Below are positions 22,867 to 23,175 of a stretch of 64,000 bases of DNA, in pieces (positions within the stretch are counted from its first letter, which is position 1; each line of letters starts with the position of its first letter). The notes under the pieces were generated by a model. That model worked only from the letters and a program-made list of their open reading frames with translations, did no database searches and was not told where the DNA came from. The stretch is from Ascidiella aspersa. Its lineage: Eukaryota. The position numbers and the translations under genes are program-made. Where the stretch lies: assembly GCA_963924565.1 (NCBI GenBank), contig OZ004614.1, positions 7,626,001-7,690,000 on the forward strand. The letters are read 5' to 3'.

Positions 22867-23175
22867 AAAATACTCTATAGCACAGCTAGCAACTCAGGTC
22901 AGACACAATTAACAGATCTTGAAAGATATATATATATTTCGCCAACAAAGGCATCGTCAGTATGTCTGAATGAAAACAAACGCAACAGTATAGGAATAAG
23001 TCACAAACATAAAAAAGTAAAACAAAGTAAAATAACTAAAATATAAAAAACATACTGTTTGCGTTTGTTTTTATTCAGATATACAGACGATGCCTTTGTT
23101 GGCAAACTATATATATACTTTTTAAGATCTGTTAATTGTGTCTGACCTGAGTTGCTAGCTGGCTAGAGTGTTTTT
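22867..23175. mobile_element. Fold-back element (about 110-125-bp arms) with a hammerhead in each arm, Penelope-like
   Basis: 22883-22991 is an imperfect inverted repeat of 23052-23161, with an A-rich spacer. Confidence 0.7.
22924..22967 (-). ncRNA. Minimal type I hammerhead ribozyme motif (intact core)
   Basis: Minus strand reads AGACATA-CTGACGA-T-GCC-TTTGTT-GGC-GAAA-TAT-ATA-TATATCT: core boxes, helix II, palindromic helix III, AUA triplet, and helix I with one mismatch. Confidence 0.75.

Follow-up and report, generated by a model that had tools for sequence, protein, structure and literature searches.

A 400-bp insertion (22863-23262) in the window, that is, the whole 64-kb stretch of ascidian DNA analysed here, is very probably a truncated, two-armed 3'-end insertion of a Penelope-like element (PLE) between 13-bp target-site duplications (TSDs), with a hammerhead that is predicted to be inactive; about half of the copies of its family carry a host leader at the AG of helix I, a pattern likely recording trans-splicing at the ribozyme. 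The earlier note had bounded the fold-back at 22867..23175, which proved too narrow, as the right arm continues through a tail to 23262; the TSD and the splice-acceptor look-alike at helix I had likewise gone unnoticed there. The two TSD copies differ by one mismatch, and both arms are of the unspliced type and 88% identical to the young copy L031. The inverted segment that had been proposed was found as head-to-head arms both at this locus and in the family. The parts of the insertion are collected in Table 1.

Table 1. Features of the insertion and of the leader arrays (window positions unless a contig is named; family positions are counted from C3 of the hammerhead core).
Feature	Position	Strand	Remark
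Left target-site duplication copy	22850..22862		final 4 letters shared with the element end
Left arm, PLE 3' end	22863..23051	-	family positions about -92 to +98; short, tail-less end
Competing-helix strand, predicted partner of acceptor/helix I 5' strand	22899..22907	-	perfect match here through C at 22964
Minimal type I hammerhead	22924..22967	-	predicted cut between 22931 and 22930; predicted unfolded
Helix I, 5' strand	22967..22961	-	AGACAUA
Core CUGACGA	22960..22954	-	followed by a bulged U
Helix II GCC/GGC	22952..22941	-	3 bp, 6-nt loop
GAAA, palindromic AUAUAU, AUA triplet	22940..22931	-	
Helix I, 3' strand	22930..22924	-	UAUAUCU, one C.A mismatch
CAG splice-acceptor look-alike	22966..22968	-	AG = first two letters of helix I; sister copies have the leader here
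U-rich stretch of element 3' UTR	22969..23051	-	likely the discarded part (outron) plus pyrimidine tract; putative role
Branch-point-like word, CTGAC in the family	23004..23000	-	reads GTGAC in the window copy
Right arm, PLE 3' end	23052..23262	+	family positions about -31 to +176; tailed end
Mirror hammerhead	23077..23119	+	three core changes, 1-nt helix I loss; acceptor AG 23077-23078; C3 at 23084
One-sided tail, about 78 nt	23184..23262	+	in L051 the tail runs into the ORF start 35 nt on
Right target-site duplication copy	23263..23275		one mismatch to the left copy
SL-RNA-like tandem array	G000:C7 from about 14.77 Mb (L156)		
SL-RNA-like tandem array	G000:C3 5.2-5.45 Mb (L148-L155)		at least 3 different 3' parts behind one upstream sequence

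Re-reading the bases bore out the minus-strand hammerhead described at 22967-22924, with its complete core letters, 3-bp helix II, palindromic AUAUAU helix III, AUA triplet and 7-bp helix I with one mismatch. The left arm holds the CUGANGA/GAAA/UH core, the bulged base and the G10.1-C11.1 pair of a minimal type I hammerhead, whereas the mirror on the plus strand, rightly described as mutated and reading CAGACGA and GGCAAAC, departs from it by U4A, G12A and A15.1C. The motif of core plus helix II was matched twice in the 64-kb window and never in 100 Markov resamples. To call the hammerhead intact, however, is correct for the core letters only and fails for helix I: a U-to-C change of the left arm, private to this copy when compared with the family, breaks helix I and makes the competing helix perfect, and the predicted pairing probability of helix I was 0.00 in 9 of 9 folding windows. 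The two arms pair over about 126 nt, forming a hairpin of -176.6 kcal/mol (z -26.8; 0/100 shuffles). No hammerhead was among the four matches at E<=10 of an Rfam search such as the earlier note had suggested, and a MIR841 match (43 bits, gathering 200) was rejected as reflecting the hairpin alone. More than 100 bp of double-stranded RNA would be expected on read-through, but RNA reads on the unique flanks of the insertion numbered 0 of 49 (in about 6% of one run).

Because helix I of the left arm is predicted not to form, the mirror core has three changes and read-through RNA would fold back on itself, the locus is most likely inert. The predictions do not support a working ribozyme in the window copy, and this hammerhead is probably dead; the locus is likely an ordinary decayed PLE stub. 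No host gene was evident around it among 49 open frames of at least 75 aa, inspected by eye. At 23269-23800, there was no contig depth in runs X1 and X2 while the left flank was covered, which may reflect a filter, divergence or a structural allele.

The origin from a PLE with a minimal type I hammerhead was confirmed by the parent ORF and the insertion pattern. In the 309 Mb of genome searched, a first look gave 752 and 940 family candidates, and a 24-nt family word had 320 exact matches (control, 0). The window stub itself has no ORF; longer family copies extend upstream into one, so that the search for a parent PLE was answered by copy L044, with a 660-aa open frame comprising reverse transcriptase (RT), a CxxCxxC linker and, at its C terminus, a GIY-YIG domain with two cysteines between GIY and YIG. 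The hammerhead core of L044 lies 263 nt after the stop codon. In Pfam, the RT and GIY-YIG domains of L044 score under the curated thresholds (E 3.8e-4 and 2.7e-3); its best homologue, the tunicate protein P0001 (46% identical over 99%), passes Pfam RVT_1 and, taken with the Ciona-type leader, suggests that the host is likely an ascidian. The Zn-finger-like CxxCxxC linker, a feature of Neptune and Nematis, is shared by L044 with 13 of the 17 homologues examined. No intact full-length copy was found in the genome, where the N-terminus of the ORF has 6 matches. The continuation of the L051 tail into the ORF start (Table 1) identifies the tail as the 5' UTR of the next unit, as in a PLE partial tandem; this partial-tandem pLTR, in which the 3' end runs into the ORF start, is seen in L051, with short pieces in L029 and L086, and no complete full-length tandem copy was found.

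We examined 98 insertions, a subset of the copies that was partly chosen as best matches to the window, and 68 of them were two-armed and head to head. One short end (about +98) and one tailed end (+174 or beyond) were present in 55 of the 68 (window included; 51 once segmental duplicates were removed), none had two ends of one kind, and 13 had an unclassified end. The two fixed 3' ends lie about 78 nt apart, which fits two fixed RT start sites such as those described in vitro for Poseidon (PMC11167929). A TSD flanked 52 of the 68, with a length of 13 bp in 24 of these (control 6/294), and was absent in 16. In L004, L051, L055 and L086, remote segments of the element have become joined within one copy, among them 5' ORF fragments fused to 3' fragments.

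A long inverted repeat of about 300 bp at several similar loci might also suggest a MITE-like or Foldback DNA transposon, or a retrozyme as the earlier note had considered. However, the repeat consists of 3' UTR sequence from an RT element, and the fold-backs differ from one another in junction, length (179-3294 bp) and TSD, each with a single tailed end; a uniform element with matching terminal repeats was not seen, the junctions being variable and the ends asymmetric. Nor were there tandem, head-to-tail hammerhead units in any of the 98 insertions, the arms of which stand head to head. We regard this explanation as scarcely tenable and keep to PLE insertions.

The earlier note had also looked to preferential conservation of the core nucleotides among genomic copies. 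No core excess was detected, with 17 mismatches in 1143 core letters, about as at neighbouring positions; since inserted copies decay neutrally, conservation among them is uninformative. From one hammerhead family to another, helices II and III change in concert around a conserved core, which marks a dimer-type hammerhead under selection (PMC4209133). Two further ideas were rejected. Expansion of the TA repeat as a means of tuning helix III was set aside, as 73 of 115 arms have the standard 5 units, 17 have more, and such changes shift the register. In vivo cleavage was sought in 5' ends at the cut site, and 15 of 37 arms end at +20 to +33; these ends were rejected as a sign of cleavage, since they include palindromic junctions counted twice and cases of TA microhomology, L069 being the only one to start at +30.

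Many arms lose their similarity just before helix I and start there with one of two 16-nt words, which we call leaders A and B. Leader B is identical to the 16-nt SL of Ciona (PMC1488885 Table 1; PMC7986045). Exact counts of the junction in the genome gave 96 + 37 = 133 leader copies versus 130 unspliced ones, the reversed controls giving 0; the 115 arms examined, a sample that leans to the unspliced form, comprised 72 unspliced, 29 with leader A, 6 with leader B and 8 others, among which no recurring cis exon was seen. The junction lies exactly after the AG that opens helix I, a splice-acceptor look-alike, and the unspliced form, to which the window copy belongs on both arms, has a pyrimidine tract and CAG at this point. 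A second PLE family, with 104 exact matches to its core and with GIY-YIG frames in L248 and L250, carries the leader in 18 of 30 loci, as 12 A (five from one duplicated segment) and 6 B, while the remaining 12 have a U-tract and TAG at the same junction point. Three more hammerhead types, each a single copy, follow leader A. Judged from these DNA copies, the leader-headed insertions likely record trans-splicing of element RNA at the ribozyme.

Leader A is also found elsewhere. It heads coiled-coil ORF copies (L134, L136, L137, L139-L142), which look like LINE 5' ends; an endonuclease-like frame lies downstream in L136 and L137, and the ORF of L139, presumably LINE ORF1-like, had only coiled-coil matches in Pfam. 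Two more repeated leader-headed types without a clear hammerhead core were noted (L207, L215, L234 and L138; L224, L225 and L233), and at 247 leader A matches across the genome the next base is not G.

Followed by GT, the two leaders occur 2301 and 354 times in the genome, and most of the first 100 matches listed lie in tandem arrays of 429 and 584 bp (Table 1), with GTAAG, a hairpin and a U-run behind the leader. In both arrays, this U-run after the hairpin is at most a candidate Sm site, the Ciona motif being absent, and there was no Rfam match. Leader A was not found in the literature searched; judged from DNA arrays and junctions, it is a candidate for a second SL-like class in this ascidian.

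Leader-hammerhead junctions were also recovered from metagenome contigs by searching with the Ciona SL, 2-7 nt and the core, which matched at least 121 stretches. In all 115 unique matches the gap between leader and core was 2 nt, and 90 of them had a palindromic helix III (44, 27 and 19 with three different palindromes). Their resemblance to the families of this genome extends no further than 67 nt (at about 75%) or 34 nt (at 85%), and this low similarity suggests that they are likely another animal's DNA. No ORF linking them to PLEs was seen in these matches; they are tied to PLEs by 4 head-to-head pairs and by the hammerhead type.

Could the leader have been gained without splicing of element RNA, by template switching of RT onto SL RNA or SL-capped mRNA? 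SL RNA genes are very numerous and template jumps do occur in the family, as in the rearranged pieces of L004, L055 and L051. Against this, the junction falls exactly after AG behind a pyrimidine tract in two families here, both leaders join at the same point, the leader-core distance is constant in the metagenome matches, and the SL intron part is never included (0 in the fetched loci), so that we consider such switching very unlikely. The leader copies might instead be one or two non-autonomous, SINE-like subfamilies with a DNA-encoded leader from a single capture, given that short leader-headed copies are many and alike and include a few segmental duplicates (L106-L109, L255-L260). However, both leaders occur on several loop II variants, in at least five hammerhead families here and four elsewhere, and an extra G often precedes the leader; some re-mobilisation is possible, but a single capture seems improbable as the general origin, and trans-splicing of element RNA is the reading that we retain. 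The base before the leader in this genome was G in 16, C in 11, T in 4 and A in 3 cases (n=34), and in the metagenome matches G preceded 44 of 64 complete leaders versus a background of 19%. A G at this position fits copying of the cap, which explains only part of the pre-leader bases, as the C is left over.

The leader further allowed the templates of the two arms to be compared. Thirty-five rows had both arms spanning the junction; two duplicates and one uninformative row were dropped and the others were scored by eye. The arm types agreed in 32 of 32 (22 unspliced/unspliced, 7 A/A, 3 B/B, 0 mixed), the second arm showing just 3-6 leader letters in three of the ten leader pairs. As independent templates would mix about half the time, the agreement points to one sense RNA copied twice at two fixed starts. 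Because the leader can come only from sense, spliced RNA, the leader insertions argue against antisense self-priming (PMC3846280), and copies comprising leader, core and downstream sequence indicate an uncleaved RNA, in line with PMC11167929.

We propose a mechanism of four steps. In step 1, when a partial tandem is transcribed across its U-rich 3' UTR, the unpaired acceptor would be exposed, and the downstream unit would acquire a cap by SL trans-splicing, its new 5' end lying about 210 nt ahead of the ORF start. In step 2, the element protein would nick both DNA strands 13 bp apart, and reverse transcription would start at two fixed sites on one sense RNA, spliced or unspliced. In step 3, head-to-head joining of the two cDNA ends would produce an insertion with a short arm and a tailed arm; the window copy would derive from unspliced RNA and have decayed later. 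In step 4, the AG of the SL would replace the acceptor AG with helix I kept or lengthened, so that dimer-dependent cleavage 35 nt downstream would remove the cap. This coupling of splicing to cleavage is the most tentative step of the mechanism.

Replacement of the acceptor AG by the leader AG adds one pair to helix I, from 7 to 8 in the family of the window (family 1) and from 5 to 6 in the second (family 2). In unspliced family 1 copies, the acceptor strand is predicted to pair with +55..+63, and the median probability of helix I is at most 0.02 when the folded RNA includes that stretch (33 copies); with leader B the predicted probability is 0.80-0.91 (8 copies), and with leader A it is 0.25-0.45 (8 copies), a partial release. 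For unspliced RNA ending at +45, the median was 0.01-0.94. A fold switch as a general rule was rejected, as family 2 shows none. Letters contributed by the leader take part in helix I pairing in 42 of 56 matches here and in 93 of 115 metagenome matches, making up as many as 4-5 of the 6-7 pairs in one family.

It is possible, though less likely than not, that the SL serves as a part of the ribozyme, so that splicing at helix I would cap the RNA, free the hammerhead and gate self-cleavage and, via loss of the cap, translation versus other fates, in a host that also has a second, undescribed SL RNA class. Trans-splicing may instead be real but incidental, any U-rich tract plus AG offering an unpaired acceptor and the overlap with helix I having no function. 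This account, which concerns step 4 alone and is compatible with steps 1-3, we give somewhat less than an even chance: the predicted fold switch is confined to family 1 and is only partial with leader A, and leader A also heads retroelement-like copies without a hammerhead, whereas the frequent pairing of leader letters in helix I and the intron of D. virilis Penelope, the end of which also maps to helix I (PMC4209133), speak for a functional overlap.

Three other features of the window were recorded. A second two-armed insertion, of another family, lies at 21304-21599 with 54-nt arms, a one-sided extension and a 12-bp duplication (21292-21303 and 21600-21611). Another minimal hammerhead is present at 55047-55177 (+), with its core at 55057, and is probably dead because its cleavage base is G; the sequence that follows it corresponds to the arms of the 21304-21599 insertion, suggesting that the two likely belong to the same PLE family. 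At 6748-8154 (-), a 468-aa open frame with a La domain (E 1.6e-15) and a partial RRM represents an exon of a La-related protein.

As described in the available portions of PMC3846280 and PMC8557442, EN+ PLEs share with this element the RT with C-terminal GIY-YIG, the head-to-head inverted and 5'-truncated copy, the one-sided tail and the TSD, and Neptune and Nematis share the Zn-finger-like linker. Here, in contrast, the tail is about 78 nt rather than 30-40, the TSD is mostly 13 bp, and spliced, leader-headed copies are about as common as unspliced ones. PMC3846280 treats both how head-to-head insertions arise and which polarity their template has as open questions; there, Arkhipova 2013 favoured self-priming on an antisense template for the inverted junctions while allowing for a sense template. 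Only spliced RNA of sense polarity can bear the leader, which acts as a natural label; found on both arms, it suggests that an uncleaved sense RNA was copied two times, beginning at two fixed sites. PAc and Poseidon in vitro, as far as the available text of PMC11167929 extends, show the same two internal RT starts defining the tail, with both strands cut and extended, a hammerhead near the ORF start and uncleaved RNA as template; no leader appears in that text, and the ORF start lies about 210 nt after the core here, not inside the core as there. Beyond these in vitro results, the present family adds genomic evidence for both starts in one insertion on one RNA type.

The Ciona SL system, as presented in parts of PMC1488885 and PMC7986045, has the same 16-nt leader (B), repeated SL RNA genes and the unpaired acceptor rule. 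A single SL is described there for Ciona and Oikopleura, whereas two leader arrays exist here, and the more abundant leader is absent from the variants in the table of PMC1488885; a second leader class, if true, would change operon and 5' end annotation in this ascidian. Reverse transcription of trans-spliced RNA has been recognised by a DNA copy of the leader in SL-bearing retrogenes of dinoflagellates (PMC5585692, PMC6050394), and six SL-merged transposable elements were reported in Schistosoma, possibly assembly chimeras according to the authors (PMC5832876). In the portions of these reports available, the dinoflagellate and Schistosoma cases are host genes or unverified merges without a ribozyme junction, and no PLE is named. 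An SL joined to a PLE hammerhead, or a second ascidian leader, was not found in the literature searched, although supplements and Repbase-type notes could hold such cases; trans-splicing is not mentioned in PMC7229834 or PMC7761336, nor in the accessible parts of PMC3846280 and PMC4209133.

Compared with the minimal hammerheads of metazoan PLEs as described in the available text of PMC4209133, the present one has the same core, bulged base after A9, G10.1-C11.1 pair, palindromic helix III and pairs on opposite strands. The in vivo role of PLE hammerheads has been called a mystery (PMC7761336). D. virilis Penelope has a cis intron that ends at helix I (PMC4209133; PMC2377424); here the same helix would receive a host leader by a splice in trans. 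PLE structure, minimal hammerheads and the D. virilis cis intron are already known; the new point, as far as the literature searched goes, is the host leader at helix I, probably added in trans. A splice site on helix I in another lineage, trans here and cis in Drosophila, allows the connection of splicing with the ribozyme to be examined on RNAs shorter than 200 nt.
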